DNA of 64,000 nt, from positions 736,001-800,000 of the forward strand of contig CBDAOY010000005.1 in assembly GCA_965198225.1 (NCBI GenBank). The letters run 5' to 3'. The position numbers and the translations under genes are program-made. The DNA comes from Terriglobia bacterium. Lineage in GTDB: Bacteria > Acidobacteriota > Terriglobia > 20CM-2-55-15. Below are positions 10,008-37,372 of the stretch, one piece after another (position 1 is the first letter of the stretch; each line of letters begins with the position of its first letter). The notes under the pieces were generated by a model, which was not told where the DNA came from, searched no databases, and was given only the letters and a program-made list of their open reading frames with translations.

Positions 10008-10063
10008 CACCATGACTGTAGGAACATCCTTTCAGTAGACTGCGACGACGTTCGAGTTGATGA

Positions 10064-10648: not shown

Positions 10649-11695
10649 ATGGGCAAGGTGATCACCATCATCGGCATCGACATTTCAAAGAGGTACTTCC
10701 AACTGCATGGAGCCACGGCAAGCGGTGAGCCTGTGCTGCGCAGGCAGCTCACGCGCCCGAAGCTACTCGAGTTCCTCGCCAAGCAGCCTGTCTGCCGGGT
10801 CGTGATGGAAGTGTGCGGCAGCGCCCATCATTGGGGGCGGATGATCCAGGAGATCGGCCACGAGGTCCGCCTGATTCCCCCGATGTATGTGAAGCCGTAC
10901 GTCAAGAGGCAGAAGAATGACGCCAACGACGCGGGAGCGATCGTCGAGGCGGCCCAGCGGCCGACGATGCGGTTCGTGGCCGTGAAGACCGAGGAGGAGC
11001 AGGCACGATCGGTGGTGTTCCGGGCCCGGGCACTGCTGGTGCGCCAGCGGACACAGACGATCAACGCGCTGCGGGGTCATCTCGCGGAGTTTGGACTCGT
11101 CGCTCCGCTTGGGACCCACAACGTCGGGAGGCTGGAGGAGGTGTTCGCGGAGCGTGAAGAGTGTTTCCCGGCGCTGGTGCCTCCCGCCATACGCCGCCTC
11201 ATCGAGCGGACCCACGATCTGGATGCGGAGATCGATGAGCTGGACCGGGAGATCCGTCGCATCGTGAGGGAAGATGAGGCGCTCGGGCGCCTGATGACGA
11301 TTCCAGGGGTGGGAGAGCTCACGGCAATGGCGGTGCACGCGTTCGCGCCACCGATGGAGAGCTTCCGTAATGGACGTGACTTTGCGGCATGGGTCGGGAT
11401 CACGCCGCGTGAATCCTCGACGGGTGGCCGCCAACGGCTGGGGGGGATCACAAAGATGGGACAGCGCGACATCCGGAGGCTCCTGTACCTGGGAGCGACG
11501 GCGGTCATCTCGAGTGCCATCCGGCGGAGGGAGGTCACCGATCCCTGGCTTGGCCGGATGCTGGACGAAAAGCCGAGGAAGGTGGTTGCGGTGGCTCTGG
11601 CCAACAGGATGGCACGCATCATCTGGGCCATGACGGTGAAGGAGGAGAGCTACAGGGCACGGGGAATGACAAAGGCCGTTGCGCCTGCAGCGTAG
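10649..11695 (+). CDS. IS110 DEDD recombinase/transposase
   Basis: IGIDISKRYFQLHG, VVMEVC, QKNDANDA, TIPGVG, WVGITPRESSTGG, VALANRMAR. RBS GGAGGG before ATG 10649. Confidence 0.95.
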   Translation: MGKVITIIGIDISKRYFQLHGATASGEPVLRRQLTRPKLLEFLAKQPVCRVVMEVCGSAHHWGRMIQEIGHEVRLIPPMYVKPYVKRQKNDANDAGAIVEAAQRPTMRFVAVKTEEEQARSVVFRARALLVRQRTQTINALRGHLAEFGLVAPLGTHNVGRLEEVFAEREECFPALVPPAIRRLIERTHDLDAEIDELDREIRRIVREDEALGRLMTIPGVGELTAMAVHAFAPPMESFRNGRDFAAWVGITPRESSTGGRQRLGGITKMGQRDIRRLLYLGATAVISSAIRRREVTDPWLGRMLDEKPRKVVAVALANRMARIIWAMTVKEESYRARGMTKAVAPAA

Positions 11696-11854
11696 GGTTG
11701 CGAGTCAGATCAGTGGAGCGAAGAAGGGTCGGCGAGATCAGAAACGCGGAGAAGAGAGAGGAAATCGTCCGGCTGGCGGCCTGGGCGGATGGACACGGGC
11801 CACGGAGGTTCCAACTGGAGAGTGCAAGCAGGACGTCGGACAAGGTAGGGGCAA

Positions 11855-12000
11855 ACGGTCGACAAGACGGGATCGGAAAACCCAGTAGGCCTCGAAGGGC
11901 CATCGAGCCCGTCGTTTCGATTTGGATCCGATCTCACGAACACCATACGGGCCCGCGGCCAGCAAGTGCCGCATCAAGAGGCCGCACATACGACCGTACC
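11855..12000 (+). ncRNA. Putative bridge RNA of IS1111 #2
   Basis: AGGCCTCGAA (11887-11896) - hairpin GGGC..GCCC - CGTTTCGA (11913-11920) match both strands of the target. CCATACG (11943-11949) and CACATACGA (11985-11993) match the circle junction. Boundaries approximate. Confidence 0.8.
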
Positions 12001-12038
12001 TGACCTGAATGCCACCGATCCTCGGTTCGAAGTCAGGC

Positions 12039-12064
12039 TTGCCAACCAGGGGGGCGTCCACATA
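12039..12064 (+). promoter_or_regulatory. -35 half of a circle-junction promoter of IS1111 #2
   Basis: TTGCCA at 12039-12044. Joining the right end to the left end would create TACGAT 18 nt downstream. Confidence 0.55.
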
Positions 12065-12253
12065 CGAGGCCTGCTCGGCGTTTACTCGCGTTGTGGCCTG
12101 TGTGGTCGCTGAGCCGCCCGAGGCGGCCCTTTGTCATCGGAGTGCTTCAGACGATGTTGTTACCTCCACCATCCGCTCCGATTGCTACCGACTGGAGCGA
12201 CAGTTGCCGGGCGGGATTCGCACCCGCTGAGGATTGGCGCCTTCTCACGGCGC

Positions 12254-16898: not shown

Positions 16899-19800
16899 TC
16901 AGGGACTCGCTGGAGGCGTCGTCGGTTCCACGGCCAACTCCAGCGGCTGACCGTTCTGCCCCGTGAAGCGGATTGATCCGGACGAGGTTTGGCCTGCTGT
17001 CCCGCTGAAGAGGACGAACTGGGTTGTCCATCCGCCGGAATCCACAAAATGGGGGAAGAACAGGTCGGATGCGTGGGCGGCCGCGTTTTCGTCGGCCGGC
17101 GGTGTCGTCGTGACCACAATGTCGAACCGCTGGTTGGTTGTCAACCGCAGGCCGACGACGGCGATGTCGGGCGTCGGGGAGGCAATCCTGAGAATTCCCG
17201 AGAAAGGCGTGGCCAATGCGGGGAAGAATTCGTCGATGAATCGAGCGGCCTGGCCCGATGCGGGGAGGGTGAGGGACTCGGTGAGTCCCGAGGCTGAGCC
17301 GTCCAATGCCGTCAATTCGAGCGACACGACGGTGGCCGTCTCCGATGTGTTGGTCAGGGCAATGCCGCTGCGCACCGAGCCCGGCTGGCCGGGGGTGCCG
17401 CTCGTCTCCCCGTAAACACGAAACGCGTTTCCGGAGATGGAGGCCGGGACACCGGCTTCGGACACGGTCACGCCGGCGTTCTGGTAAGAGAAGATGCTCA
17501 CTCCCGACGGGGCGGCGTGGCCGGGGTCAGCCACCACCCGGACTGAGCCGGTCTGAATGGGGCCGGTGGGACTGGCGGTCTGGAGCCGCGTTGCACTGCG
17601 TGGGGGGATCGCATAGGGGAATGCCGATCCATTACTCCCATCGGCAAGCGTCAGCGTGGCCGGCCCGGCGTTCGCAGTCTCGCTGCCGGGGCCAAGGAAC
17701 TGAACGCTCCCCTGGATCGGGGCATGGGTGGGGTTGACGAGAATGACCTGGGTCGTCCATCCGGCTCCCGCCGCGAAATGCGGAAAGTAGACCGTGGCGG
17801 GCGTGGGGACTGTGAGCGGCGCGACGGGAAGCGTCGTCATCAGGAACTCGGAGCGCTCATTGACGAACCCGCGCAGCGCGATGACGGCGACCGGCAGGTC
17901 GGAGCTGAAGGTGAACGTGCCCCACACTGCGTCGCCTCCGTTAAACGGATCCTCGTCCAGGAATTGTGCGATCTGTTCCCGGGGCCCCAGCATGAACGTG
18001 CCGTGTCCGGAGTCGATGCCTTGGCTATCGGTGAAGAAGAACCCGATCGTGGCGGCGGTGCCGTTGGGATTGGCCATGGCGATCCCGGTCCGGAGAGCAC
18101 CGTCGGTTTCGGCAAAGATCCGGCCTTCCAGTACGGCGGCGGCGGCGGGGACGCCGGCTTCCGAGACGAGAATCCCGTCCTGCCGGGAACCAAATATGGC
18201 CAGTCCGGTTGGCAGCGTCATGCCCGCACCGGCCGCCACCTGTCCATATCCGGCAACGAGCGCGGGGGAGGCGCCCTGGGAGGTGAGGGAAACTCCGCCC
18301 TGGTCTGGAATGGAGAACCGTTGCGTGGCGGACGTACCGGTCGGACTCAGCAGGCGGATCCGGTAGTTGCCCGCATCGGCGATGTAGAGGTTGCCAACCC
18401 CGTCCACCGCCACGCCCCGTATATGGCTGATCTGCGCCTGGCTCGCCGGACCGCCGTCCCCGCTGAAACCGCGCTCCCCCGTGCCCGCAATCGTCGTGAT
18501 CACCCCCGTCGAATCGACCTTGCGGATGCGGAAGTTGCCCGCATCGGCGATGTAGAGGTTGCCAACCCCGTCCACCGCTACGCCTGTGGGAAGCTCGATC
18601 TGCGCCTGGCTCGCCGGACTGCCGTCCCCGCTGAAACCGCGGAGCCCCGTGCCCGCCACGGTCGTGATCATCCCGGTGGAGTCGACCTTGCGGATACGGA
18701 AGTTGTTCCTGTCGGTGATGTAGAGGTTGCCCGCCCCGTCCACCGCCACGCCATAGGGAGAGTTGAGCCCCGCCTGGCTCGCCGGCCCGCCGTCCCCGCT
18801 GAAACCGCGCCGCCCCGTGCCCGCCACGGTCGTGATCGTCCCGGCGGAATCGACCTTGCGGATCCGGTGGTTGCGGGTCTCGGCGAAGTAGAGGTTGCCC
18901 GCCCCGTCCACCGCTATGCCTGTGGGAGTGTTGATCGGCGCCTGGCTCGCCGGCCCACCGTCCCCACTGAAACCGCGGAGCCCCGTGCCCGCCACGGTCG
19001 TGATCGTCCCGGTGGAATCGACCTTGCGGATCCGGTCGTTGACAGCGTCAGCGAAGTAGAGGTTGCCCGCCCCGTCCACCGCTATACCTGTGGGAAGCTC
19101 GATCCACGCCTCGGTCGCCGGACCGCCATCGCCTCTGAAACCGAGCCCCCCCGTGCCCGCCACGGTCGTGATCGTTCCGGTGGAATCGACCTTGCGGATA
19201 CGGCCGTTGCCGAAATCGGCGATGTAGAGGTTGCCCGCCCCGTCCACCGCTATACCTGTGGGAAGCTCGATCCACGCCTCGGTCGCCGGACCGCCATCGC
19301 CGCTGAAACCGAACTTCCCAGTCCCCGCAATCGTCGTGATCGTTCCGGTGGAATCGACCTTGCGGATACGGTTGCCCCTATCGGCGATGTAGAGGTTGCC
19401 CGCCCCGTCGACCGCCACGCCTGTGGGAGTGTTGATCTGCGCCTGGCTCGCCGGACCGCCATCGCCGCTGAAACCGCGCTCCCCAGTCCCCGCAAGCGTC
19501 GTGATCGTTCCGGTGGAATCGACCTTGCGGATACGGTTGCCCCTATCGGCGATGTAGAGGTTGCCTGCACCGTCGACCGCCACACCCTCGGGAGAGTTGA
19601 TCTGCGCCTGGCTCGCCGGACCGCCATCGCCGCTGAAACCGAGCCCCCCTGTGCCCGCCACGGTCGTGATCATCCCGGTGGAGTCGACCTTGCGGAGGCG
19701 GTGGTTGCCGGTATCGGCGATGTAGAGGTTGCCTGCACCGTCGACCGCCACACCCTCGGGAGAGTTGATCTGCGCCTGGCTCGCCGGACCGCCATCGCCG

Positions 19801-21635
19801 CTGAAACCGAGCCCCCCTGTGCCCGCCACGGTCGTGATCATCCCGGTGGAGTCGATTTTGCGGATACGGTGGTTGTTCATATCAGCGATGTAGAGGTTGC
19901 CCGCTCCGTCCAACGCCACACCCTCGGGCCAGGAGAGCGTCGCCTGAGTCGCCGGTCCTCCGTCCCCGCTGAAATCGCTCTTCCCCGTCCCGGCAATCGT
20001 CGTGATCGTCCCGTTGGAATCGACCTTGAGGATGCGATGGTTGTTCCTATGGGCGATGTAGAGGTTGCCCGCCCTGTCCACCGCCACGCCATCGGGAGAG
20101 GAGAACCACGCCTGGGTTGCCGGACCGCCGTCCCCGCTGAAACCGAATTCCTCCGTGCCCGCCACGGTCGTGATCGTCCCGGTGGAATCGACCTTGCGGA
20201 TCCGGTGGTTGCTGCTGTCGGCAAAGTAGAGGTTGCCCACGCCGTCCACCGCCACGCCATCGGGAGAGTTGAGCTCCGCCTGAGTCGCCGGTCCGCCGTC
20301 CCCGCTGAAACGGAGCTCTCCCGTGCCAGCCACGGTTGTGATCGTTCCGGTGGAATCGATCTTGCGGATGAGGCCGTTGCCGGTATCGGCGATGTAGAGG
20401 TTGCCCGCCCCGTCCACCGCCACGTCCTCGGGAGCGGTGAGCTGTGCCTGGGTTGCCGGCCCGCCGTCTCCGCCGGAACCAATCACCCTCGGTCTCCCTG
20501 CCACGGTCGTGATCGTTCCGGTGGAATCGATCTTGCGGATGAGGCGGTTGCCGGTATCGGCGATATAGAGGTTGCCCGCCCCGTCCGCCGCCACGCCCTC
20601 GGGCCAGGAGAGCGACGCCTGAGTCGCCGCCCCGCCGTCTCCGTGGAAACCACTCGCCCTCGGTCTCCCTGCCACGGTCGTGCCCGTCCCCGCGGAATCG
20701 ACCTTGAGGATGCGGTGGTTGCGCCTGTCGGCGATATAGAGGTTGCCCGCCCCGTCCACCGCCACGCCTGTGGGAGAGTTGAGCGGCGCCCCAGTCGCCG
20801 GGTCTCCATTCCGGAAAAATTCGGAACCCATCCCGCCCGCCACGGTCGTGATTGTCCCGGTGGAGTCGACCTTGCGGATCCGGTCGTTGCGCTCATCGGC
20901 AAAGTAGAGGTTGCCCGTCGCGTCCACCGCCATGCCACGGGGAGAGTCGATCTGCGCCTGAGTCGCCGGTCCGCTGTCACCGCTGATACCGTGCTCCCCC
21001 GTGCCCGCCACGGTCGTGATCGTCCCGTTGGAATCGACCTTGCGGATGCGGTGGTTGCTGCTGTCAGCGATGTAGAGGTTGCCCGCCCCGTCCACCGCCA
21101 CGCCATAGGGAGAGTTGATCTGCGCCTGAGTCGCCGGTCCGCCATCGCCGCTGATACCGCGCTCCCCCGTGCCCGCCACGGTCGTGATCGTCCCGTTGGA
21201 ATCGACCTTGCGGATGCGGTGGTTGCTGCTGTCGGCGATGTAGAGGTTGCCTGCCCCGTCCACCGCCACACCCTCGGGACGGGCGATCCGCGCCTGAGTC
21301 GCAGGGCCGCCGTCCTCAAGCACTCGCTGCCCGGCGAAAGTATCGATTCTATAGCTGGTCTGAAGCTGCGCCCAGGCCACTGGAGTGAGCAGTGCCAGGC
21401 AGCCGATAAGAGAAGTGAACCTGGCCAGGAAACGCCCCCCGGACCGTCCATAGGCCCGACGTGGGCGGGGATTACCGGGCCGGTCCGGGAAGAACTCATC
21501 GGCGGCGCATGCCCGCCCGCCGACGGCAAACGCGTAGACTCGCCAACCGCGCGCTCGCAGCGCTGAAAGTATGCTGGATAATTGAGTCATGGATGAATGT
21601 AGCGTTCTGCGTTCTGCGGTTAGTGTATCGTTCAT
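16899..21635 (-). CDS. Large exported NHL-repeat (teneurin-like) protein with C-terminal beta-rich domains; true start uncertain
   Basis: 18 units of GFSGDGGPA...P.GVAVDGAGNLYIAD..N.RIRKVD. Signal-like segment LLTPVAWAQ; C-terminal FPHFAAGAGWTTQ motif present twice. Confidence 0.88.
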   Translation of the reverse strand: MNDTLTAERRTLHSSMTQLSSILSALRARGWRVYAFAVGGRACAADEFFPDRPGNPRPRRAYGRSGGRFLARFTSLIGCLALLTPVAWAQLQTSYRIDTFAGQRVLEDGGPATQARIARPEGVAVDGAGNLYIADSSNHRIRKVDSNGTITTVAGTGERGISGDGGPATQAQINSPYGVAVDGAGNLYIADSSNHRIRKVDSNGTITTVAGTGEHGISGDSGPATQAQIDSPRGMAVDATGNLYFADERNDRIRKVDSTGTITTVAGGMGSEFFRNGDPATGAPLNSPTGVAVDGAGNLYIADRRNHRILKVDSAGTGTTVAGRPRASGFHGDGGAATQASLSWPEGVAADGAGNLYIADTGNRLIRKIDSTGTITTVAGRPRVIGSGGDGGPATQAQLTAPEDVAVDGAGNLYIADTGNGLIRKIDSTGTITTVAGTGELRFSGDGGPATQAELNSPDGVAVDGVGNLYFADSSNHRIRKVDSTGTITTVAGTEEFGFSGDGGPATQAWFSSPDGVAVDRAGNLYIAHRNNHRILKVDSNGTITTIAGTGKSDFSGDGGPATQATLSWPEGVALDGAGNLYIADMNNHRIRKIDSTGMITTVAGTGGLGFSGDGGPASQAQINSPEGVAVDGAGNLYIADTGNHRLRKVDSTGMITTVAGTGGLGFSGDGGPASQAQINSPEGVAVDGAGNLYIADRGNRIRKVDSTGTITTLAGTGERGFSGDGGPASQAQINTPTGVAVDGAGNLYIADRGNRIRKVDSTGTITTIAGTGKFGFSGDGGPATEAWIELPTGIAVDGAGNLYIADFGNGRIRKVDSTGTITTVAGTGGLGFRGDGGPATEAWIELPTGIAVDGAGNLYFADAVNDRIRKVDSTGTITTVAGTGLRGFSGDGGPASQAPINTPTGIAVDGAGNLYFAETRNHRIRKVDSAGTITTVAGTGRRGFSGDGGPASQAGLNSPYGVAVDGAGNLYITDRNNFRIRKVDSTGMITTVAGTGLRGFSGDGSPASQAQIELPTGVAVDGVGNLYIADAGNFRIRKVDSTGVITTIAGTGERGFSGDGGPASQAQISHIRGVAVDGVGNLYIADAGNYRIRLLSPTGTSATQRFSIPDQGGVSLTSQGASPALVAGYGQVAAGAGMTLPTGLAIFGSRQDGILVSEAGVPAAAAVLEGRIFAETDGALRTGIAMANPNGTAATIGFFFTDSQGIDSGHGTFMLGPREQIAQFLDEDPFNGGDAVWGTFTFSSDLPVAVIALRGFVNERSEFLMTTLPVAPLTVPTPATVYFPHFAAGAGWTTQVILVNPTHAPIQGSVQFLGPGSETANAGPATLTLADGSNGSAFPYAIPPRSATRLQTASPTGPIQTGSVRVVADPGHAAPSGVSIFSYQNAGVTVSEAGVPASISGNAFRVYGETSGTPGQPGSVRSGIALTNTSETATVVSLELTALDGSASGLTESLTLPASGQAARFIDEFFPALATPFSGILRIASPTPDIAVVGLRLTTNQRFDIVVTTTPPADENAAAHASDLFFPHFVDSGGWTTQFVLFSGTAGQTSSGSIRFTGQNGQPLELAVEPTTPPASP
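18350..21330 (-). repeat. Intragenic tandem array of 18 ~168-bp NHL repeat units
   Basis: Recurring GTAGAGGTTGCCCGCCCCGTCCACCGC at ~165-171 bp spacing; some adjacent units nearly identical. Confidence 0.9.
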
Positions 21636-21939
21636 GGTTTTGATCTGTTGTTAAACTCTCACCGGAATATTCCGGTTTTTTCCGCTGCACATCCATTCCC
21701 GCGCCCAGGGCTCGGAGCTTCTCTCGCCTCCGGACCGCGTCTTTGAGGAGATTTCGTCTGGACCTCGGGGCGCTATCATCCTGGACCCGGAGCAATTGTG
21801 CGCACTACCCCGGCTTTTCAAGAGTCCTCACTTGAAGAGTCAAACCTGTTTCACGATGCCGGCACTTTGCCAGCTACCGGTGACCGCTGCTGCGGGAGAA
21901 TTCTGGCGGGAACCCCGGAGGGCTGGGCCGGATCCGTAA

Positions 21940-22290
21940 GGGCGGGAATTCCTATCTACCGGATGTTCTTGTGGTCGGCGCACGGACACAGTATCACGTC
22001 GGCGACTCTGCTGAAGTGGAGGCTCCGCATTCATGAAGAATGCGGGCATAACCAGGCGGCGGTGGCGCTCGCCAACAAGCTGTGCCGACGATCTGCGCCG
22101 CCTGGAAGCGCGATTCCGACTATCCGGAGGCCAGACCGGATTTCGTTGCAGCAGGCCGCACTGACGTTCCTGTGCTGGCGTATCGGTCGGTCGGCGCGGG
22201 CACACGCCGACAAACTTCAGGCCCCTTCGGGGCTGTCATTTGACGCCTGGCGCCGCGTGCGACCTTGCATCGTGGCCTGAAATCCTACAA
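21940..22290 (+). mobile_element. Remnant of a third IS1111 element: transposase C-terminus plus bridge-RNA scaffold
   Basis: FLWSAH...LLKWRLRIHEECGHNQAAVALANKLCR resembles the IS #1 transposase end. 22181-22278 aligns with 10064-10161. Confidence 0.72.
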
Positions 22291-22330
22291 TTCCACTGGA
22301 GCGGCTGGAGCTGCGGATGCAGTCGTCGGC

Positions 22331-22672
22331 CAATACCTCGGCCACGCTGCGCTGAAGGGCCCGATCTTGAACACAGGGCACGCCCAGGGGACGTTTCTCC
22401 TGCTTGCCGGGCTTGGGGATATACACCCGCCGAATCGGCGGAGCGCGATATCCCTTCTGGTGAACAGACTGGAGCATTGGCTCCACCCAGACTCCGAATT
22501 CCTCCTTCGCCTCCGGTACCCTCTGACCATCACATCCGGGAGCCGTGTTGCGGGGCACTTGACACAGGTTCTTCCACACACGCTCTCGGGTGACATGATG
22601 CGCCAGTGACGTGAACCGGAGCTTTGGCTCACTCCGAGCTTTCGCCGCTATTCGTTCCAGTTTCGTTTCCAT
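22331..22672 (-). pseudogene. ltrA: N-terminal fragment of the intron B reverse transcriptase
   Basis: METKLERIAAKARSEPKLRFTSLAHHV...APGCDG...RRVYIPKPGKQEKRPLGVPCVQDRALQ, then homology breaks. Confidence 0.85.
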
Positions 22673-22798
22673 GACTGGTTGTTCCTCTCGTTGCATAGAG
22701 GACCGTATCCTCCCGTTGCATGGAGCTCATGTTTCCCAAGAACGAGTCCACTTCTGCTGGCCGCTTCCCCATGTGATCGGCTCTCCCGACCTCGGAGT

Positions 22799-23704
22799 GT
22801 AGAGTCGAAAGTGGTCGGGCCGATCGGCCCTTCCACCGTCCGCTCAATCAAACGGCTCGTGCGGTTTTCCCGCAAGCCGCTTTCCTCAGTTGCTCCTCGT
22901 TCGGAATTCGCTGTGTGGCGGCAGGTGGCGGCTTCGTTCGTACCGCGTTTGGGTCTTTCGCTAAGGGAACTATCCAATTCCACGATATCTCCGCGTTTCC
23001 CATCGCTCGCACATTCACGACTGAGTACGGGGACTTCCCCCTCCAACGGGCCTTTTGGACCCGCCAGCGCCGCTGCTCGAAGCAACGATCCGAGACCTTA
23101 TGTTTGCCGTCTCGTTCCTGAGTACTATTCCCCGATCCGATTCCTGACACCGCGTCGGCCGGAATTTCGCTCTCGCTTATATCCGCACCTACCGCGCAGG
23201 GCTCTAGGTCGATGTTTGTCTTCTCGGTTGCCCGCCCTTTCGTCTGCGGGTGCCACATCATCTCGACCTTACCTTCCGCTCGGACGATACCAGGCCTCCC
23301 TGGGTCACTCGCGTCTCTTCTCCACCGTGTCGCCCGCACACACCTTGGTGCGATGGGGTGGAACCAATGCGCCTTCGCCCCAATAGTGCGGGCTCGACCA
23401 TTCCCCATCTTTGGCCGACCGGTTCATCCTCGGGATGGCTCCCGTCGATTACGACCCGGTGGTTCTCCTCATGCCCTTCAGACCCCACCTCGCGGTGGGC
23501 GCCCTGCCCTCCAAAGTTTCCGTAGCTGGCTCCAGCTTTGCCTTGGCCGTATCCGGCTTTCGCCTTCGTGCCCGTTTAGGCATCTGCACTACCTGTCTAC
23601 ACTTCGGCCAGTGAGGCATTACCCCCACTTGTTGGATATCGACCCGTGGCCTCGGGCCGAGCGGGACTTTAACCCGCCGGAAACGCGTGCTGCCAGGCAC
23701 GCAC
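22799..23704 (-). mobile_element. ORF-less group II intron C nested in intron B
   Basis: 5' (GT)GCGTGCCTGGCAGCACGCG at 23704/23702; domain V AAGCGGCTTGCGGGAAAACCGCACGAGCCGTTT; 3' ...TTCGACTCTAC at 22799. About 0.9 kb, no RT ORF. Confidence 0.78.
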
Positions 23705-24168
23705 TATCAGCCAGTCTGACTTCCGACAGGCCTTCGGGTCTTCCTCGCGTTGTTGGCTTGTCCAACCCTACAAGCTCCGCTTGAACCTGACGGATCTCCC
23801 TTGTTCCCATGAAATCCTTGGTTGCATGCCGGCGGTACGAACCCCGGAAGGTTGCCATTGCGTGCCCTGCGATTCCGCCTTCCCCGGCGGTACGAACCCC
23901 GGAAGCACCCCAGGGCACGCCATTGCGTGCCCTGCGATTCCGCCTTCCCCCAGCGACAGGGTCGGCTACTTCAACCACGTTCGATCAACCACGTTCGATT
24001 TCGGGGCTATCTTTCCGTTCACTGGTGTTCCGGCCTACTCCCTCCCTGTCTACGCTTCGCAGTGTCCGTCACCGACCACCACGCAAGACTCGGTACGTGG
24101 CTGCCGGCTAGGCTCTGCCACGGCCGCCATCTCAGGCGACTGGATCTCATGCGCTTGCAAGGCGCAAC

Positions 24169-26050
24169 GCTCATCGAACCGGACATGCAGATTTCCCGCA
24201 TCCGGCTCTCGGACGAGATCATGCCTTCGCCCACGGAAAGCTCGCCGTACGCGGCGCAAGATGCGTGAGCCCGTAATCGGACCAGAGCCGCTCGACCGGG
24301 AAGCGCACGTGTTTCCCGGTCCGCACCTTGTGCTTACGGCAGAGCCACTGGCGCAGCCGCCGAGTTGCGTGCCGGTCAATCGCCTCGTAGGCCGGGCTGA
24401 CCTGTCCCAGGGTGAAGTAGTTCGCCCAACCGGTCAGCAACCGGTTGAGGCGTCCCACTACGACCTCCGGCGGCAGGAGCGCGTGACGCGGCGTGGTCAA
24501 CTCGCTCACACGACGGCAGATGCTCTGGACGCTTTCCCGGCTCGGACGTGTGCCTATGTAGGCGGCACCCGTGTCCGGCCGGTAGTTGCAACCAATCCGG
24601 TAGCCGAGGAACGTCATCGATTCCTCCGGCACCCGGCAGCAGCGGGTCTTCTCAACGTTCATCGCCAACTTCAGACGTTTTATCAGGGCTTCGACCGCCG
24701 CTAGCATTACCGCTGCCGGCGCGCGACCGAGAACCGCGAAGTCATCCGCGTAGTTGACGATTTCCGCCTTGAAGTGCCGGGCGTAGCCCAGCACCTTCCA
24801 GCCCAGAATGAAGCGCCGCATGTAGATGTTGCTGAACAGCGGCGAGATCGGAGACCCTTGCGGGGTCCCCTTCCGCTCGTGACGCGCCCGGTTCGTGCGG
24901 CGGCGACCGCCGCGCCCGTCGTCCTCTTCCACCGCCATCTCCAGCCACGCCTTGACCCAGCCCAACAGCCGCCCGTCGCTCACGCGCCGGGCGATGGACT
25001 TCATCAGGTCCGCGTGCGGAATCTGGCCGAAGTAGTCCGACAGGTCGGCGTCCACCACCTCCCGGTGGCCCGTCCTCAGCAGCCGATGCACGCGCCTGAT
25101 TGCGTCATGCGCGTCTCGGCCCGGCCGGTACGCATACTGCTCCGGTTGCAGGTCGGCTTCGAAGATCGGCGATAACACCAGCATCGCCGCCGTCTGCACC
25201 ACCCGATCCCGGAGACACGGAATGCCCAACGGCCGGAACTTCCCTCGTTGCTTCTTCGGGATGAGAACCTGCCGAACCGCATGCGGCCGATAGGTCCCTT
25301 CCTTCAGGTCCCGCGCCAGTGCTCCCAGCCACCGGTCTACCCCAAGCGCCTCGATGTCTCCGACCGTCTCGCCGTCCACCCCGGCCGCGCCGCCGTTGCG
25401 GCGCACGGCCTGCCAGGCGACTGCGAGCACGTCGTCGCGCCACACCTTGTCGCTCAGAGAGTAGAACCGGAAGCCCAGAGCTTCCTTCGCTTTCGCATGT
25501 AGCGCCGTCTGGAGTCGCTGAACTCTCTCCGAGGCTGTTAGGCTCTCGCCAGTCCTCATGTCCCTTCCTCCGTCATGCGCTGCTCTCGAACTGAGGTCCC
25601 TTCCCTCCACCGGCATTACCCGGCTTCCCTGGTACTGCGGACCTCTCCGCCACCCTGTCGGCCCAACCTGACCCTCGCGGGCTGTCGGTTGGCGCATGCC
25701 ACGCCACCGGCAGGGCTTCCCGTGTTGCGTCCATCCCCCCCTTCCACACGTGCCGCCGCTACTACCCCGGCGGAACCGGTCGGTGCTCGCGTCGCTCGCT
25801 TCCCGACCGCTGGCAGCCTTCCCCGTATTCCGGGCGGATCGGCTTCCGCATCGCTTCGTTACGAGGCCTGCGCAGCGTTCACATCGTTGCGGCCCGCGTG
25901 GTCGCTGAACCGCCCAGGGCGGCCCTTTGTCATCGGAGTGCTTCAGCCGATGTCGTTACCTCCATCGTCCGCTCCGACTGCTACCGGCTGGAGCGACAGT
26001 TGCCGGGCGGGGTTCGCACCCGCTGGGGAATGGCGCCTTTCACGGCGCAC
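24169..26050 (-). mobile_element. Group II intron copy A2 (domains I-V; domain VI displaced by intron B)
   Basis: Canonical 5' GTGCGCCGTG at 26050; domain V GAGCCGGATGCGGGAAATCTGCATGTCCGGTTC; near-identical RT to A1. Confidence 0.9.
24219..25559 (-). CDS. ltrA: Group II intron reverse transcriptase/maturase
   Basis: Same motifs as 7455-8795 (YADD, GTPQG, GWANYF), with few substitutions. Confidence 0.92.
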   Translation of the reverse strand: MRTGESLTASERVQRLQTALHAKAKEALGFRFYSLSDKVWRDDVLAVAWQAVRRNGGAAGVDGETVGDIEALGVDRWLGALARDLKEGTYRPHAVRQVLIPKKQRGKFRPLGIPCLRDRVVQTAAMLVLSPIFEADLQPEQYAYRPGRDAHDAIRRVHRLLRTGHREVVDADLSDYFGQIPHADLMKSIARRVSDGRLLGWVKAWLEMAVEEDDGRGGRRRTNRARHERKGTPQGSPISPLFSNIYMRRFILGWKVLGYARHFKAEIVNYADDFAVLGRAPAAVMLAAVEALIKRLKLAMNVEKTRCCRVPEESMTFLGYRIGCNYRPDTGAAYIGTRPSRESVQSICRRVSELTTPRHALLPPEVVVGRLNRLLTGWANYFTLGQVSPAYEAIDRHATRRLRQWLCRKHKVRTGKHVRFPVERLWSDYGLTHLAPRTASFPWAKA

Positions 26051-26427
26051 CAAAATCCAACGCTAAGGGTTGTCGCCTAGTGTCCTTAGCGGTCTCAATG
26101 CGGCTCCGTGGAGGTCCTCGTCCAAGTCGAAGCGGGTACTTCCCGTAGGGGTTGAGGTGGCCGTAGAGCGCTGCCGGCGTTGGTCTGAAGCCAAGTCTGG
26201 AGTTCGGGCTCCTGAGAATCGGAGGTTTTGGCGGCTCGTGGATACCCGGAGATAGACGGCGATGGCCCGGAGGTTCACCCGACCATTACTCTGGGGCTCA
26301 CAGAAACCCCAAAGAATCACGACATAGCCCAATTATTTCAACGAACCCTTCAAGTCGGACACTGCCTGATCGCTTCAGGTCCAGCAGCCCTTAGCGTTGG
26401 ATTTTGCACCGTTGCTATCGTAACCCC
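26051..26427. mobile_element. Minimal Tn3-family element (MITE-like) with resolvase fragment
   Basis: Right 38-bp IR reads GGGGTTACGATAGCAACGGTGCAAAATCCAACGCTAAG (26427-26390). Left IR retains only CAAAATCCAACGCTAAG (26051-26067). Internal AVYLRVSTSRQ fragment. Confidence 0.75.
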
Positions 26428-28612: not shown

Positions 28613-29132
28613 ATGAGCAAGAAGAACATTGATCGAAGTGTGGAGTCAAGAGTCTGCTTTGAACAGCTGGAAGAGTGGGTGCGAGAGCAGATCCAGTTTT
28701 ACGTACAGGAACTGTTGGAGGATGAAGTGACACAGCTGCTGGGACGAAGAAAGAATGAGCGTCGCCGAGAAGTGGACGCACCCGGGGGCTATCGCAACGG
28801 CTACGGTAAGGAGCGGCGACTGACGCTGAGTTGCGGAACGATCAAGCTGCGGCGTCCCCGAGTGCGGGATCTGGAAGAGCGTTTTGAGAGCCGGGTCTTG
28901 CCGCTGTTTGCCAAGCGGACGCAAGAGGTACGAGACTTGATTCCAGAACTCTATTTGCATGGTCTGGCCGAGGGGGATTTCGATCTGGCCTTAAGAGGGC
29001 TTTTAGGGGAAGAAGCGCCGCTGTCCCCCAGCACCGTAGCCCGGTTGAAGGAGAAGTGGCAGGGAGAAATGGAGGCCTGGCAAAGCCGTCGGCTGGACGA
29101 TCTGGAAGTGGTGTATCTGTGGGCAGACGGTG
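28613..29132 (+). pseudogene. IS256 transposase, 5' half
   Basis: GYRNGY, LRRPRVRD, LYLHGLAEGDF, VYLWADG, cut at the catalytic DG motif. Confidence 0.9.
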
Positions 29133-29186
29133 CCTCAGTGGTCACTTCAAAACCGGCCAACGGGGATGGCCCGGGACGGTGTTGTT

Positions 29187-29942
29187 CTACCTCTTTGGGA
29201 CTGGACTCGGCAAGCCCGTTTTAGTCCTCCAACTCCGAGGGCCGCATTTGAGGATGTGGCCGTGATGGAGCAGCCGGTCCAGCATGGCTGTGACGGCGGC
29301 GCTATCACCCAGTAGTTTTCCCCAGTCTTGGACGGGTCGATTCGATGTCAGTAACGTACTGGTCCGTTCATAGCGTCGCATCACGATCTCGAGGAGTTCC
29401 TCTGCTGCAGTGGGAGGAAGCTTCCGCATCCCCAGATCGTCGATGATCAGCAGCGGGACCGTCGCCAAAGCTTCCATGCACTCCTTTCGGGTACCGTCAA
29501 TGGTGGCTTCGGCGATGTCGTCGAGAAGCGCATGAGTTTCACGGTAGACGACCCGATAGCCCTGCTCAATGGCAGCCAAGCCGATGGCCTGAGCCAGATG
29601 ACTCTTGCCGGTGCCAGGAGGACCGAGAAACAAGGCATCGTCGTGCCTGGAGATGAAGGCGCCCGTCGCCAGGTCGAAGACCAGACTACGATTCATCTTC
29701 TTGTTGAAAGTAAAGTCGAAGGAGTCGAGCGTCTTCTGGGGATCGCGGAACCGGGCCTGTTTCCGACGCCGTTCCAACAACCGGATGCTGCGACGGTCCA
29801 GTTCATCCGAGACCAGACGAGAGACCAAGTCGATCGGCGCCATGGCTTCGGTCTGGGCCTGGTGGAGGCGTGTTTCCAACACCTCGGCAATGCCGCCGAG
29901 CCGGAGTTGTCGGAGAGCCCGCTGGAGTTCGATCAGATTCAT
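29187..29942 (-). CDS. istB: IS21 helper ATPase IstB
   Basis: GPPGTGKSHLA, LLIIDDLG, LTSNRP, AMLDRLLHH. Confidence 0.95.
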   Translation of the reverse strand: MNLIELQRALRQLRLGGIAEVLETRLHQAQTEAMAPIDLVSRLVSDELDRRSIRLLERRRKQARFRDPQKTLDSFDFTFNKKMNRSLVFDLATGAFISRHDDALFLGPPGTGKSHLAQAIGLAAIEQGYRVVYRETHALLDDIAEATIDGTRKECMEALATVPLLIIDDLGMRKLPPTAAEELLEIVMRRYERTSTLLTSNRPVQDWGKLLGDSAAVTAMLDRLLHHGHILKCGPRSWRTKTGLPSPVPKR

Positions 29943-31579
29943 GAGTGTTCCTGCTCCTGGATTTTGAGGTTGATGAGATCGCGATACTGAGTCAGTTCGC
30001 GAATGAGAGGATCGACCTGACGCAGGGCGAGTGGAGGTCGCCGCTCCAGATAGCGGCGGACGAAACGATACTCGTAGACGTGGAGTTCCAGTGCCGCAGC
30101 CGAAGCATCCTCCACGGCGGAGACACCGTACTTCTTGGCCAGGGAGAGCACACCCAGGATGCGGCGGACCGCAGCTTCCCCTTGTCGGCGGTGAATGGCG
30201 TCACAGAGTGTGCCGATGTGGGTGCCAGCGCGGCGGGCTCGGGCCAGCAGTTGCACCGTCGTTAACGGGGTTTTCTTCGGGTTGTCTTCAGCACGGACAC
30301 GGTATCCACCCCGCTTCTGGCGGACATGCTCGCGGAGGAGTGGATAGGTGTTTGGGTCCAGGATCCGGACGTGAAGCGTGTCCCACTGGACCTTGACACC
30401 CCGTCCGATCCAGCCCGGCGGTACACTGTAATAGGCGGCTTCGACTTCGACGCAACCGTCGAGATGGACGACACGTTCACCGAATTGGTAATAGCGAAAC
30501 GGTTCGATCGGCAGCGGCTTAAGAGATGGTTTCTCTTCGGCGAACATGGCCGCCACCTGCCGCTTGGTCGTGCCGTGGATGCGGGTGTCGGCCCATCGGA
30601 CTTCCCAGCGATCCAGATACCCCTGGGCCTGGTCGAGGCTCTCGAAGCGCTGTCCCTTCAATGGGGTCTTCTGGGCGTGCCCGACACCGGATTCGACTTT
30701 GCCTTTGCGGTCTGGATCGCGCACCCGGCATGGCATGGCCACCACGCCGTAATGGGTCAGGACATCTCGAAACAACGGATTCAGGGTGGGGTCGTAATGG
30801 TCCGGGACGATCACGCCTTCGCGCAGGTTATCCAGCACGATGAGGCGGGGAGTGCCGCCGAGTCGGCGGAACGCGGTCTCGTGCAACTGGGCCCAGATGC
30901 GGGAACTGGACTTGAACGTCAGCAGCCGGACCGATTTGCGGCTGTAGCCCAACGTCATCACGAACAGCCGCGTCCGTCGGTACTTGCCCGTCTTCGGATC
31001 CCGGACCATCGGTCCGGTCCCGTAGTCGACCTGCGCTTCCTCTCCAGCTCCGGTCTGGATGATTCCGACCGCTTCCGGGGATCGCACTCCCCGGAGTTTG
31101 CGAACGAAACGCTTGACCGATTCGTAGCTGCCGACAAAACCGTGATCCGTGACCAGGTCCTGCCAGATCGCCATCGCGTTGCGGCCACGCTCCAGCGCCT
31201 GTTGGATGGTCTCCCGGTACGGCTCGCAGGAACTGCCCGACGGTGGGCTTGGAGGGGGAGCCGACGACTCTGCCGAGACCGGATTCTCGGCCTCCGGGTC
31301 GGTGGTCACTTCGTTGGCCGGTTTTGAAGTATCGGAACCGCCAAACCCCTCAACGACACCATTTACGCCGTCCGGGTCGGTGGTCACCTCGTTGGCCGGT
31401 TTTGCCGGTCGCCGGCCCCAACTCCCGGGCGGCCGAATGGGGATTCCGGCCGCTCTCAGATACGCACTGGCCGTCTCACGACGCACGCCGGTGGTCTGTT
31501 CGATCCGACGCAGCGGCCATCCAAGCCGCCCCAATGCAACAACTTGCTCTCTCTTTTCTGTGCTCAAGACATTGCTCAT
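29939..31579 (-). CDS. istA: IS21 transposase IstA
   Basis: GEEAQVDYG, VLDNLREGV, RKGKVESGV, RIHGTT, YYSVP. Overlaps the istB start. Confidence 0.95.
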   Translation of the reverse strand: MSNVLSTEKREQVVALGRLGWPLRRIEQTTGVRRETASAYLRAAGIPIRPPGSWGRRPAKPANEVTTDPDGVNGVVEGFGGSDTSKPANEVTTDPEAENPVSAESSAPPPSPPSGSSCEPYRETIQQALERGRNAMAIWQDLVTDHGFVGSYESVKRFVRKLRGVRSPEAVGIIQTGAGEEAQVDYGTGPMVRDPKTGKYRRTRLFVMTLGYSRKSVRLLTFKSSSRIWAQLHETAFRRLGGTPRLIVLDNLREGVIVPDHYDPTLNPLFRDVLTHYGVVAMPCRVRDPDRKGKVESGVGHAQKTPLKGQRFESLDQAQGYLDRWEVRWADTRIHGTTKRQVAAMFAEEKPSLKPLPIEPFRYYQFGERVVHLDGCVEVEAAYYSVPPGWIGRGVKVQWDTLHVRILDPNTYPLLREHVRQKRGGYRVRAEDNPKKTPLTTVQLLARARRAGTHIGTLCDAIHRRQGEAAVRRILGVLSLAKKYGVSAVEDASAAALELHVYEYRFVRRYLERRPPLALRQVDPLIRELTQYRDLINLKIQEQEHS

Positions 31580-31695
31580 GCCGACGGAGCCTGTTTCGGC
31601 TTCCCGTCGGTGTCAATGTCCCGGGCTTATCTATGTTCGTTGGCCGGTTTTCAGGTGACCACCATTGGCCGGTTTTGGGTGACCGCCGAGGGGTG

Positions 31696-32420
31696 TGTAC
31701 ATCAAAGCAGGGCTGGAGAAGGAAAAGGCCGTGATCCTGGTAGTGATCGCCGCTTTAAGTGATGGCACTAAAGTGGTGGTGTCGGTCAGTAGTGGTTATC
31801 GAGAATCGACCCAGAGCTGGTCCGAAGTGCTGAGGGATCTCAAAGAGCGGGGGATGAACCCACCGAGACTGGTGATGGCTGACGGGCATCTGGGGATCTG
31901 GGGAGCGTTGCGCAACGTTTTCCCAGAAGCCGACGAGCAGAGATGCTGGAATCATCGCATCGTCAACTTGCTGGCTAAGATCCCCAAGGGTCGGCACAAA
32001 GCGGCGTTGTTGATGTTGCGGCAGATCCCTTATGCAGAAACACGGCAGGAAGCCGAGCAAGTCAAAGGACGATTCCAACATTGGTGTGGCAAGAGAGGAC
32101 TGGAGGCAGCGGCTGATCTGATCGACCAGGACTGGGATCGGATGGTGACGTTTTACAACTATCCCAAACAGCAGTGGCAACATCTGCGGACTACCAATCC
32201 AGTGGAGTCTCCCTTCTCTGCTCTGCGACTGCGAACCGATGCCTCTCGAAGGTTCAAGAAAGTGGCCAACGCACGGGCTGTCATCTGGAAGATGCTGCTG
32301 GTCGCTGAGAAAAGATTTCGCCGTTTGAAGGCTCCGCACTTGATGAAGGATGTCTACCAAGGCGCCCAATATGTCAATGGAGTTCCAGTCAACCAAGTCA
32401 CCGAGGAGAAAGCCGCCTGA
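31696..32420 (+). pseudogene. IS256 transposase, 3' half
   Basis: ESTQSW, ADGHLGIWGAL, QRCWNH, LRTTNPVESPF. Confidence 0.9.
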
Positions 32421-32442
32421 TGTCTATTTACACACTTATTGA

Positions 32443-34812
<2,370 letters not shown>

Positions 34813-35143
34813 TGGTAAGGTCTTAGCGAGAGTAAGTGCTTCAGGGCCGCTGAAAAGCAGCTCACATTGGGCGCCGGGTCAGGAAATAACATGGTGCAAT
34901 TAATCCCATGTTCATAAACGGCTTGACTTCCCACTCCTAAAGGCACTGGTGAAGCCTCTATGGCCCGGCTCTGAGGGCATACTCGCGCACAAGCATGTCG
35001 GCCGGAAGGTTCCATTCAGCCGACAAGCCGGATCATTGGCAGGGTCAGCGGACGGCGACGGTTGAGCACCTCCGAGGCATGAGACTGGGATCCGATCAGG
35101 ACGCCGAGGTCCTTTTGCCGGAGGTTGCAGGCCTCCATTGAGC

Positions 35144-35265
35144 ATGTCAGGTTGATGTATACCCTAAACTGATGTCAAGCAACCCCCCGAATCGCGTCGA
35201 ACTAGGCTCGTGTGTTGCATTGATTTACACGCCCCGCCCACGGTCTTAGATTCTTTATTGACAGA
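35144..35265 (+). promoter_or_regulatory. Tn21-like res site upstream of tnpR
   Basis: ATGTCAGGTTGATGTATACCCTAAACTGATGTCA resembles Tn21-type res subsite I; further AT-rich half-sites end at TTATTGACA. Confidence 0.65.
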
Positions 35266-35285
35266 TTCGCAGCAGGAGGAACGCC

Positions 35286-35845
35286 GTGCCAGGCCAACGC
35301 ATCGCCTACGTCCGGGTGAGCAGCATCGACCCGAACCCGGAACGCCAACTGGAGCAGCTCCCCCTCGACCAGGTCTTTACCGACCAGGCTTCGGGCAGGG
35401 ACACAGAGCGTCCGGAACTGGAACGGCTGCTCGCCTTCGTGCGCAAAACCGACACGGTGGTGGTCCACAGCATGGATCGGCTGGCTCGCAACCTGGACGA
35501 CCTGCGGCGCATCGTGGGCACGCTGACCGGGCGCGGCGTACGCATCGAGTTCGTCAAGGAGAACCTGACCTTCACCGGCGAGGACTCCCCGATGGAGGAC
35601 CTCATGCTGTCGGTCATGGGGGCCTTCGCCGAGTTCGAGCGGGCCTTGCTCCGGGAACGGCAGCGCGAAGGCATCGCCCTAGCCAAGCAGCGCGGGGCCT
35701 ACCGGGGCCGCAAGAAAACGCTCGCGCCGGCGCAGGCGGCCCAGCTCCGCCAACGGGTCCCGGTCGGAGAGGGAAAGACCCGGCTGGCCCGCGAGTTCGG
35801 CATCAGCCGGCAAACCCTCTACAAATACCTGCGCACAGAAGACTG
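35286..35845 (+). CDS. tnpR: Serine resolvase TnpR (Tn21-like); normal stop lost, ORF reads on to 36392
   Basis: AYVRVSS, DTVVVHSMDRLARNLDDL, MGAFAEFERALLRERQREGI, HTH LAREFGISRQTLYKYL. Confidence 0.88.
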
Positions 35846-35885
35846 CCGATGCCTGACCGCAGCTTGCGGACACCCGCTGCGCGGG

Positions 35886-36374
35886 CTATTTGGGATCCGT
35901 GTCCTTGGCCGCAAGGATGGCGCGGGCCTGTTGGGTGAGGAGTTCCTTCTCTTTGGGCGTAAACCGGATATCTCCGCTGACCCACTTGGTGAGAGCAGCG
36001 AGATCCCGGGTGGCGATCTCGGTGATGCGCATCTCCTCACCCCGAAGAGTGATGGAAATGGCTCCAGCAATCTCAATCGCTTGCTGGCACTCCCGGATGG
36101 ATATCGTTGGCGGGAGAGGAGGAAACCGCTCGAGGAACTGGCGTTCGTCTTCTGCAATGATGGCGCGCGCCTTCCGGGTGAGTTCTTCCCGGCTGGCGCG
36201 CGGAAGCCGGATATCTCCGCAGATCCAGTTCTTCCCATGGACGCGGAGGGCTCTGGTGATGAGCACCTGCTCCCCACGGATCATCACAGGGATGCCAACA
36301 CCGGCGGTTGCGCTCGCCCTTTCCACGAGAGAAATCGCCCTTTGGCAAGTTCCGATGGATATTCTCGGTTTCAT
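35886..36374 (-). CDS. Hypothetical RepA-coupled protein with an internal two-fold repeat
   Basis: ATGA overlap with the repA stop; homologues at 45067 and 63197; two copies of ISIxxCQxAI...RGE...IT...WxxGDIR...ELTxxARAI. Confidence 0.7.
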   Translation of the reverse strand: MKPRISIGTCQRAISLVERASATAGVGIPVMIRGEQVLITRALRVHGKNWICGDIRLPRASREELTRKARAIIAEDERQFLERFPPLPPTISIRECQQAIEIAGAISITLRGEEMRITEIATRDLAALTKWVSGDIRFTPKEKELLTQQARAILAAKDTDPK

Positions 36375-37372
36375 CCTTCCGCCGTGGGGTGAACCCTCGA
36401 AGCTTTTTCTACAAGCGAAAGCTGCTGAACCGGAGCGATGGCCGGGGCCGAAGGCAACAGGATCAGGACGCCCGGAGCCGTGGTGTAGTTCAACTCCGGC
36501 CAGGCCAGCTTGATCTTCTTCAACTCACGCAGAACATTTTGGCGGAAGCTCCGAACGATGAATTTGTCGCTGGCTTTGGCCGGAGCCGTCCCGAACTGGC
36601 CGTACAGCTGCGGCCAAGGGATGTGGAGCGGAGCGCGCAATGTGGAGATCCGGTAGGCCACCCACAGGTAGAGATCGAGGCACAGCGAAGAGCTTTTGAG
36701 GGCCGTGAGGGTGTTCATGTCGAGCGGCACCGGGCGGTTGACAATCTCATTGAACAAGTCTTCGCTGAGTTCGATCTTGCTCTCCCACAGCATCGGCACA
36801 TCGAGACGCTTCGGATCCCACCAGAGCTCGGTGCGGGCGGCGATCCGCGAGTTTACGGTGGCCTTGCCGCGCTCATCCGAGTAGATCAGCGAAACGTGTG
36901 CGTTGAACAGGCGGTCCATCTGGTTGCAGAGCCTCGATTGGGTTCTCCCGTCAGTGCTGGTGATACCCAGCTTGCGCATGAACTCGGAAAGCGAAGAACC
37001 GAGGATCAGCACATGGCTTTGAGTGCGTACCGCCTCCGTGCAAAGCCAAGCCAGCAGCAGGCGGGAAATATTTCCGTAGGGGAGTTTGGTCTCACCGCTT
37101 GAAAATATGACCAGCTTGTACGTGCCGTTGAGGCGTTGGTATTCCTTCTGGTTGCCGGGGTTGGCGCGGGGCAAGCTGCACAACGCCAGCATTCGCGCCA
37201 TGAAACCCATATCGGGGTCTCTTTCGCTGACCCCGATCAACTGGTCCACTTGATCGGCAATGGTGAAGCTCCGCCGCCGCGGCGGTGATGGGCGGAGCTC
37301 CTGGCCCGGCCCGTCATCCAGGCCGGAGAGGGCATCACCGATCGGAACCAATCCGTCTCGCTTACGCTTCAT
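36371..37372 (-). CDS. repA: Plasmid replication initiator RepA (RepA_C / IncW-like family)
   Basis: GFMARMLALCSLP, LPYGNISRLLLAWLCTEAVRT, LGSSLSEFMRKLG, QMDRLF, VPLDMNTLTALKSSSLCLDLYLW. Confidence 0.85.
   Translation of the reverse strand: MKRKRDGLVPIGDALSGLDDGPGQELRPSPPRRRSFTIADQVDQLIGVSERDPDMGFMARMLALCSLPRANPGNQKEYQRLNGTYKLVIFSSGETKLPYGNISRLLLAWLCTEAVRTQSHVLILGSSLSEFMRKLGITSTDGRTQSRLCNQMDRLFNAHVSLIYSDERGKATVNSRIAARTELWWDPKRLDVPMLWESKIELSEDLFNEIVNRPVPLDMNTLTALKSSSLCLDLYLWVAYRISTLRAPLHIPWPQLYGQFGTAPAKASDKFIVRSFRQNVLRELKKIKLAWPELNYTTAPGVLILLPSAPAIAPVQQLSLVEKASRVHPTAEG

Follow-up and report, generated by a model that had tools for sequence, protein, structure and literature searches.

The DNA analysed here, referred to as the window, is a 64,000-nt stretch of the genome of a Terriglobia bacterium of the Acidobacteriota (assembly GCA_965198225.1; G000:C5:736001-800000), and it contains three group II introns that are nested one inside another. 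All of the nested elements lie on the minus strand. Intron A2 occupies window positions 24168-26050 and comprises positions 1-1883 of a full length of about 1994 nt. Intron B follows directly and is present as two segments, a 5' segment at 23703-24167 (UUGCG...GAUAGU) and a continuation at 22330-22798, which corresponds to positions 402-870 of the 1937-nt canonical B. Between these segments, at 22799-23702, lies intron C (GCGUGCC...GACUCUAC), a complete intron of 904 nt that has no open reading frame (ORF). A preliminary description of the window, made from the letters alone, had proposed an intron in an intron in an intron, with each insertion in an RNA domain rather than in an ORF. This arrangement was borne out by empty insertion sites, by pairing of exon-binding site 1 with intron-binding site 1 (EBS1-IBS1), and by Rfam or reverse transcriptase (RT) matches. 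The stack had been described as ending at 22331, and B in fact ends at 22330. The genome as a whole holds 31 matches to the GIIM domain and 32 to the domain V model RF00029. Positions without a contig prefix are those of the window; C4, C5 and C6 denote contigs of the source genome.

The outermost intron, A2, begins with GUGCG at 26050 and its domain I matched RF02003 over 26025-25882 with 80.9 bits (the cut-off is 49 bits for the D1-D4 models RF02003 and RF02005, 32 for RF02001 and 40 for RF00029). An intact ORF at 25697-24219 encodes a 492-aa RT/maturase with RVT_1 and GIIM domains and a TIGR04416 score of 313 bits (cut-off 300). Domain V lies at 24208-24176 and is followed by the linker GAU and the first five nucleotides of domain VI, GAGCG (24172-24168); the window locus lacks the last ~111 nt of the 1994-nt intron (full-length copy at C6:7952-5959), and with them the remainder of domain VI and the 3' splice site. 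Rfam scans, which the preliminary description had proposed as a check, thus placed the D1-D4 regions of both A2 and B above cut-off, with domain V of A2 slightly below it (39.3 vs 40 bits) and C below every cut-off, as detailed further on. Read evidence was taken from Logan contigs, among them those of DNA runs X1 and X3 and of RNA runs X7 and X8. A contig of X7 omits 1266 nt of the A2 ORF region (within 24225-25492), which corresponds to an ORF-less form of A, and X1 and X3 carry another skip in A2, of 938 nt (24238-25177).

Intron B begins where A2 breaks off. In its 5' segment, positions 24132-23889 matched RF02005 with 114 bits (vs 49), and the continuation at 22330-22798 extends from the 3' half of a domain-III-like hairpin through the stretch leading into domain IV to the start of the RT, of which only the N-terminal ~110 residues (start at 22696 or 22672) are present. 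The window copy therefore retains the RF02005 match and the RT N-terminus and lacks domains V-VI. Canonical copies elsewhere in the genome are 1937 nt long (401 + 1536) and score 137 bits with RF02005, 47.1 bits with RF00029 and 317 bits with TIGR04416.

The junction between A2 and B reads GAUGAGCG|UUGCG at 24168|24167, whereas intact copies of A read ...GAUGAGCG|GCGACUGG...GACUCUAC. Two copies of A without B (A1, which ends at window position 7295, and C6:7952-5959) show the uninterrupted form ...GGUUC GAU GAGCG GCGACUGG...GUCGACUCUAC, and contigs of three runs likewise continue from 24168 into GCGACUGGAAACG, the form of A that lacks B. At the other end, five B-containing loci end ...CCACCCGGU and then resume with GCGACUGG. 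Because just one register fits both sets of copies, the insert must be UUGCG...CCCGGU, and removing it restores the sequence of A exactly. B is therefore inserted between bases 5 and 6 of the 5' strand of the long domain VI of A, 8 nt past domain V. The preliminary description had placed B exactly after domain V; the proximity to domain V holds, and the site itself lies 8 nt further on, with the B start, UUGCG, one base to the right of where it had been drawn.

A terminal loop of B, GUCGCUCUA, includes CGCUC, the complement of the GAGCG that precedes the insertion, and serves as EBS1 for this IBS1. Among nine B copies from seven genomes, GAGCG occurs with CGCUC in three (in the window copy the loop has lost 3 nt), GAGAG with CUCUC in one, where both sides have changed, GAGGG with CUCUC in four, giving a G-U pair, and GCGGG with CUCUC in one, with a single mismatch. 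The EBS1-IBS1 pairing of B thus covaries across copies. The choice of target is also recurrent. In six other genomes, all seven complete B-family 5' ends stand behind ...UC-NNN-GNGNG, 8 nt past a hairpin of domain-V type, and RF00029 finds a domain V ahead of the B-family 5' end at three of these seven loci, one of the hosts being of the RF01999 type, unlike A. Within the source genome, four of six B copies sit behind domain V of A. Other introns of the RF02005 type found here (types H5 and H8) begin with GUGCG or GUACG and do not stand behind a domain V, which makes the choice of domain VI as homing site a feature of the B subfamily rather than of the structural type. Across 300 genomes of the class, strong matches to the B subfamily (E ≤1e-100) occur only in the family of the window, in 8 of its 34 genomes including the source genome, and the matches in five genomes of other families are weak (E 2e-5 or worse).

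The flanks of the A family and the site of B both bear on the intron class. The 5' exon of A2 (26051-26090, minus strand) consists of a hairpin, GCUAAGG...CCUUAGC, followed by GUUGGAUUUUG, and resembles an intrinsic terminator; other copies of A follow AUUUCAAC-type flanks, part of them likewise behind hairpins, which hints at a IIC-like choice of target for A. The closest solved RTs for both A and B are of IIC type (GsI-IIC and the E. rectale and R. intestinalis RTs). The LtrA and TeI4h RTs, however, score close to those of IIC type, and a class assignment through the nearest solved structures was not retained. The position of B after the domain-V hairpin, together with the hairpin and U-run in the A2 flank, is at most suggestive of class IIC.

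The inner boundary of the stack is defined with the same precision. The B|C junction reads GAUAGU|GCGUG at 23703|23702 and the C|B junction CUCUAC|ACUCC at 22799|22798, and taking C out restores the outer sequence exactly: in other genomes, GAUAGU|ACUC is uninterrupted in six of the eight B-family loci that have the site and the other two carry C (nine loci were examined, one of them without the site). Empty targets are also found in host intron H6 (CAUAGU|AGCCC, 7 copies), in C itself (AAUAGU|ACUCAGG, in 10 of the 14 copies listed), in A (GCAGU|ACCAGG, 6 copies), and at a site outside introns (GAUGGC|AAUG, 1 copy). As these empty paralogues assign the two bases that precede GCGUG to the host, C starts at GCGUG. 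The preliminary description had let C interrupt domain III of B, in keeping with the domain-III-like position of the site, and its bracketed GT had implied the B|C junction given here. A start of C at GUGCG (23704, giving 905 nt) is rejected by the empty sites, and a 3' end at 22800 is rejected by the count of positions and by a contig that skips 904 nt. This contig, from RNA run X7, joins 22798 to 23703 with 30 nt on its shorter side, omits exactly the 904 nt and thereby fixes the boundary of C; DNA runs X1 and X3 and RNA run X8 gave no contig with this C-less join. We also considered a B-like copy at C5:817039-818878 as an empty C site and rejected it, since this copy arose by deletion and is short of 181 nt of RF02005-conserved structure as well.

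C is not easily recognised as an intron, and one could regard it as a miniature inverted-repeat transposable element (MITE)-like element or a passive fragment that happens to lie in intron DNA; it has no ORF, it stays below the Rfam gathering scores and its 5' end, GCGUG, has C at position 2, vs the consensus GUGYG. Its 3' portion, however, folds as a group II intron. The last 92 nt (22890-22799) fold with z = -5.7, and none of 200 shuffled sequences folds as well. Domain V (22882-22851) has the AGC triad and a 2-nt bulge, domain VI (22845-22799) has a bulged A at 22805, 7 nt before the 3' end, and the 3' end itself, CUCUAC, fits AY. In addition, C insertions are not accompanied by target duplication. 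The window copy shows 0 differences in 904 positions from the copy at C4:151332-152235, and C is 96-97% identical to two intact elements of 2.15 kb (C5:503866-501714 and C6:345941-343788) that carry a 475-479-aa RT ORF between C positions 798 and 804, with RVT_1 and GIIM domains and a TIGR04416 score of 392 bits vs 300. Because this near-identical parent carries its RT between those two positions, C is a deletion derivative of it, and C would rely on the parent RT in trans. A 77% identical relative in another family of the class (G042:C22:1-2932) has the canonical GUGUG at the aligned 5' position; it sits after ...GGUCAGAUCGGGACUUUGG, with the same GUCAGAUC motif as the hosts of C and a different IBS1. 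That C is something other than an intron is, given the fold, the parent and this relative, next to negligible in probability.

C can pair with the 5' exon of its host. Its EBS1, ACUAU at 23387-23383, complements the exon end AUAGU, and a second loop at 23443-23432 (AGCCA), a candidate EBS2, is complementary to UGGCU, which lies six bases upstream of that in B. The same loop reads AGCGA in the parent and where C copies reside within other hosts. Another EBS2 candidate, AGCCAG at about 23530, was rejected because it lies upstream of the UCUGAAGG region, within a palindromic stem. When the uninterrupted B is folded, a hairpin domain forms (z = -2.1) that has UGGCU in its basal stem and AUAGUA in its 5' internal loop. 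This hairpin we take to be domain III by its position, with a crystallised IIC intron as reference.

The source genome contains 20 C 5' ends and 20 C 3' ends. The 5' flank ends in UAGU in 17 of 20 cases (AUAGU in 13, GUAGU in 4), and the remaining three end in UGGC and UAAU (two of them given as GGCCCGUAGU-type). The 20 flanks represent ten distinct targets; an eleventh, intron A, is known from its 3' junction only. Nine of these eleven targets are group II introns, each invaded at a domain-III-like AUAGU|AC spot, and they span four Rfam D1-D4 types: B, H5 and H8 belong to the RF02005 type, H4 and H6 to RF02001, H2 and H3 to RF01999, and A to RF02003, while C itself, which has a site of its own at 23124|23123 (AAUAGU|AC), matches RF02001 weakly. 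The other two targets are a host without an Rfam match and the non-intron site. The insertions always lie 90-290 nt beyond the D1-D4 model match and ahead of the ORF.

Since the region is built of multi-copy repeats that are 97-100% identical, it could be argued that the assembler mis-joined them and that the cell lacks the nesting, or else the break at 22330. No short-read contig bridges the C 5' junction by at least 31 nt, and contigs stop at each repeat edge. The A|B, B|C and C|B junctions, however, are found in identical form at six loci of the genome and in assemblies of two other species, and this recurrence excludes chance. A 1120-nt contig of an RNA run spans the C 3' junction. Furthermore, each of two runs has a 1117-nt contig that spans 21500-22359, one with 0 differences and one with 1, crossing the break with 30 nt of B, the maximum that a k=31 graph allows; because the two contigs are independent, the break at 22330/22329 is real. 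We therefore consider an assembly artefact highly unlikely. In X1 and X3, the summed contig depth over the intron segments (22305-26300) is 20-2000x that of the unique flank (10.7 and 7.9), which suggests that these intron families are very abundant in the samples, contig depths not being taken as copy numbers.

Related loci show both deeper stacking and extensive rearrangement. At C6:838810-843620 a four-level stack of A, B, C and C is present, in which A lacks positions 236-1165. Its order is A, B, the first 579 positions of C, a second and complete C inside that one, the remainders of the outer C and of B, and the A 3' end, and the RT of B is intact there (448 aa). The preliminary description had called three levels unusual; this stack goes one level deeper, and up to five nested introns are described for Methanosarcina acetivorans in PMC4424553. 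From C5:810333 onward (within 810200-819200) lies an inverted near-duplicate of the window locus that includes 240 nt of the upstream flank. There, a 1412-nt element with a DDE_Tnp_1_4 transposase is inserted about 2 nt before the 3' end of B, and a second, internally deleted copy of B follows, and then the A 3' end. In the genome of another genus, a B-C-C arrangement is 100% identical and B stands behind the domain V of a different intron, and in a third genus C is 99.6% identical and lies inside a B variant of 82-90% identity.

Such copies invite the explanation that these loci are mosaics made mainly by homologous recombination among dispersed introns rather than by insertion of one element into another. 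At C4:150750 and C5:889958, a C copy links the 5' half of host H2 (RF01999) to the 3' half of B; in both regions (C4:148500-154000 and C5:887500-893000), H2 begins directly after the 3' end of another RF01999-type intron. A product C(1-904)+C(580-904) at C5:812868-814095 fits a deletion between nested copies, and the inverted near-duplicate itself points the same way. Recombination, however, cannot produce junctions that agree with empty sites base for base, nor can it make a 5' exon pair, with covariation, with a loop in the element that follows it. It rearranges stacks once insertion has built them and does not explain them, and we regard it as very unlikely to be the main origin of the nesting.

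The window copy is itself a decayed member of this set. Its B 5' segment is 465 nt long, vs 401 nt in the canonical copy, and differs from it by a 14-nt tandem duplication at 23999-23972, an imperfect duplication of about 65-nt period (repeat starts at 23950 and 23885), a 2-nt loss, and a loss of 3 nt from the EBS1 loop (23961-23947). The continuation, in contrast, shows 0 differences in 468 compared positions from the canonical copy and then breaks after ...GAGGUAUUGG at 22330, so that the 3' 1067 nt of B, domains V-VI included, are absent. Beyond the break, about 700 nt (22329 down to 21636) are unique in the genome, and 22329-21316 has no other genomic match. A decayed IS110-type fragment with one frameshift and one stop lies at 21857-22088 on the plus strand, about 240 nt from the break; it is C-terminus-like and matches residues 241-325 of the IS110-family transposase encoded at 8973-10007 (tblastn E 1e-10 and 1e-8).

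That transposase is encoded by an insertion in the second A copy of the window. A1 (7295-12253, minus strand) is split by two insertions, each with an IS110-family transposase gene (8973-10007 and 10475-11695, both on the plus strand). They lie at A positions ~187-191 and 430/431, and the latter site is 13 nt beyond the domain-III AGU|AC spot of A and recurs as the same junction in the A copy at C5:609851. The preliminary description had also reported IS1111 hits on the introns. Two IS110-family genes do interrupt A1 and an IS110-type fragment does adjoin the break in B, while the insertion sequence found in B elsewhere is of the DDE_Tnp_1_4 kind.

The damage also bears on whether the stack might be a working regulatory twintron, in which ordered splicing controls a flanking gene or the RT of A. 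The RT ORF of A2 is intact, and the C-less junction is present in a contig of an RNA library. The window copy, however, lacks domains V-VI of B and the 3' splice site of A, its B has a damaged EBS1 loop and duplications, and no exon ORF is interrupted at the locus. A regulatory role is thus extremely unlikely. The window stack is a 3'-truncated, dead relic in which B and A2 cannot splice, and only C could still do so.

Taken together, the evidence makes it very probable that this stretch is the 5' two-thirds of a stack that arose through two successive site-specific retrohoming events and was later truncated. In the first event, a 1937-nt member of the B subfamily with the unusual 5' end UUGCG, encoding an RT that has no endonuclease domain, would have reverse-spliced into the DNA of an intron A between G5 and G6 of domain VI, guided by pairing of the EBS1 loop CGCUC with GAGCG. 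In the second, the 904-nt C would have reverse-spliced into the domain-III-like hairpin of B after AUAGU, guided by its EBS1, ACUAU, with the pairing of the EBS2 loop AGCCA with UGGCU as a probable further guide. The RT of the parent presumably splices C and mobilises it in trans. Motifs in the ribozymes of other introns would thus serve both lineages as homing sites, which would offer many harmless targets and give rise to stacks. An IS110-type insertion and a deletion may later have removed the 3' 1067 nt of B and the last ~111 nt of A, and splicing of an intact stack would proceed from the inside out.

Several points weigh against this history. No locus of this genome has A, B and C all complete, and because recombinant loci exist, not every junction marks an insertion. 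C scores below the Rfam cut-offs (RF02001, 24.5 vs 32 bits; RF00029, 33.4 vs 40, and this for one copy only), and the window copy is not listed by RF00029 at E values up to 10. A complement of 5-6 nt within 904 nt is weak evidence by itself, and the EBS2 pairing of C is complete only with the site in B. The joined contig of X7 is not proof of splicing, because it could equally stem from a C-less B copy of another strain; in a genome of the same genus, a B site of identical local sequence is empty. The assignment of the C site to a putative domain III is based on its position and on a local fold (z = -2.1). Finally, splicing and mobility of these introns are predicted from their sequences.

On one side of the stack, the unique stretch beyond the break adjoins a gene at 16899-21635 (minus strand) that encodes a 1578-aa NHL/teneurin-NHL repeat protein and contains internal DNA repeats of about 168-nt period. 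On the other side, at 28613-37372, mobile-element genes are clustered: an IS21-type pair (IstB + integrase) splits a Mutator-family transposase, and genes for a resolvase and for a RepA_C plasmid replication protein are also present. This region may derive from a plasmid or an island.

Nested group II introns are known from a few systems. Bacterial twintrons are called few, and ORF-less bacterial introns rare, in PMC4424553. The closest likeness is to Methanosarcina acetivorans (Dai and Zimmerly, 2003, via PMC4424553, section 17), in which repeated site-specific homing into other introns, by ORF-less as well as RT-encoding members, has produced arrays of up to five nested introns, trimmed by recombination and without coding exons around them; the stacks of the present genome reach four levels and also carry recombination deletions. 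That host is an archaeon, and homing there, judging by the title of the paper only, is into the ORFs of related introns. Here, in contrast, a bacterium has insertions targeted at ribozyme domains VI and III, in hosts of four different Rfam structural types.

The twintrons and complex twintrons of Euglena chloroplasts include insertions into catalytic domains. In these, as here, the inner intron interrupts a part that the outer one needs for function, so that the inner one has to splice first (PMC4424553). They differ in being organellar, degenerate, ORF-less, vertically inherited and located in housekeeping genes, and they are not recently mobile elements with an intron motif as target. In the TeI3/TeI4 twintrons of Thermosynechococcus elongatus, ORF-less introns, which are mobilised in trans, sit between two start codons in the ORF of the host intron (Mohr et al., 2010; PMC2882425). 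In that system, ORF-less deletion derivatives outnumber their RT-encoding parents, inner copies are identical and outer ones diverged, EBS/IBS pairing is found at the sites, and one intron has a 5' T, as B does. The present insertions differ in lying in domains III and VI, in crossing families and in reaching three to four levels. The Trichodesmium erythraeum twintron, also a bacterial intron in an intron, is a single two-level case in a protein gene, for which sequential splicing is demonstrated (Pfreundt and Hess, 2015; PMC4649490), whereas the elements described here lie outside genes and are known from sequence only. Self-invasion, as by C at its AAUAGU|AC site, is described for a lycophyte mitochondrial intron (Zumkeller et al., 2020; PMC7049729); there the insertion is in domain IV and the inner copies are characterised as mostly dead, as 'zombie' twintrons. 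The depth of nesting is therefore not new. What appears new is the systematic homing into ribozyme-core motifs across intron classes; a literature search, in which older and subscription literature was thinly covered, returned no earlier account of bacterial intron lineages for which motifs of domain III or VI serve as cross-class homing sites.

For annotation, these loci carry a warning, since ORF-less introns inside introns escape searches based on RTs or on Rfam cut-offs. They also provide natural material for tests of obligatory inside-out splicing, since C occupies a core domain of B while B occupies the branch-point helix of A, and natural variants of the 5' splice-site consensus (UUGCG and GCGUG). 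Whether B and C represent two lineages specialised in parasitising other group II introns is a question on which we are evenly balanced. According to this proposal, each would recognise a short motif that its host cannot change without loss of function, in the case of B the start of domain VI just past domain V and in the case of C the AUAGU|AC internal loop of domain III. If true, this would amount to hyperparasitism among retroelements, with a target that cannot easily escape through mutation, a host range that crosses classes, a self-renewing supply of harmless targets that includes the parasites themselves, and passage between genera at 100% identity. The non-canonical 5' ends would be tolerated because the host intron, and not a cellular gene, bears the cost of imperfect splicing. 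In published work, nested group II introns serve as a model for harmless intron multiplication and for a possible origin of intron-rich genomes, and dedicated parasitism of this kind would account for the intron 'pile-ups' of intron-rich soil or symbiont bacteria.

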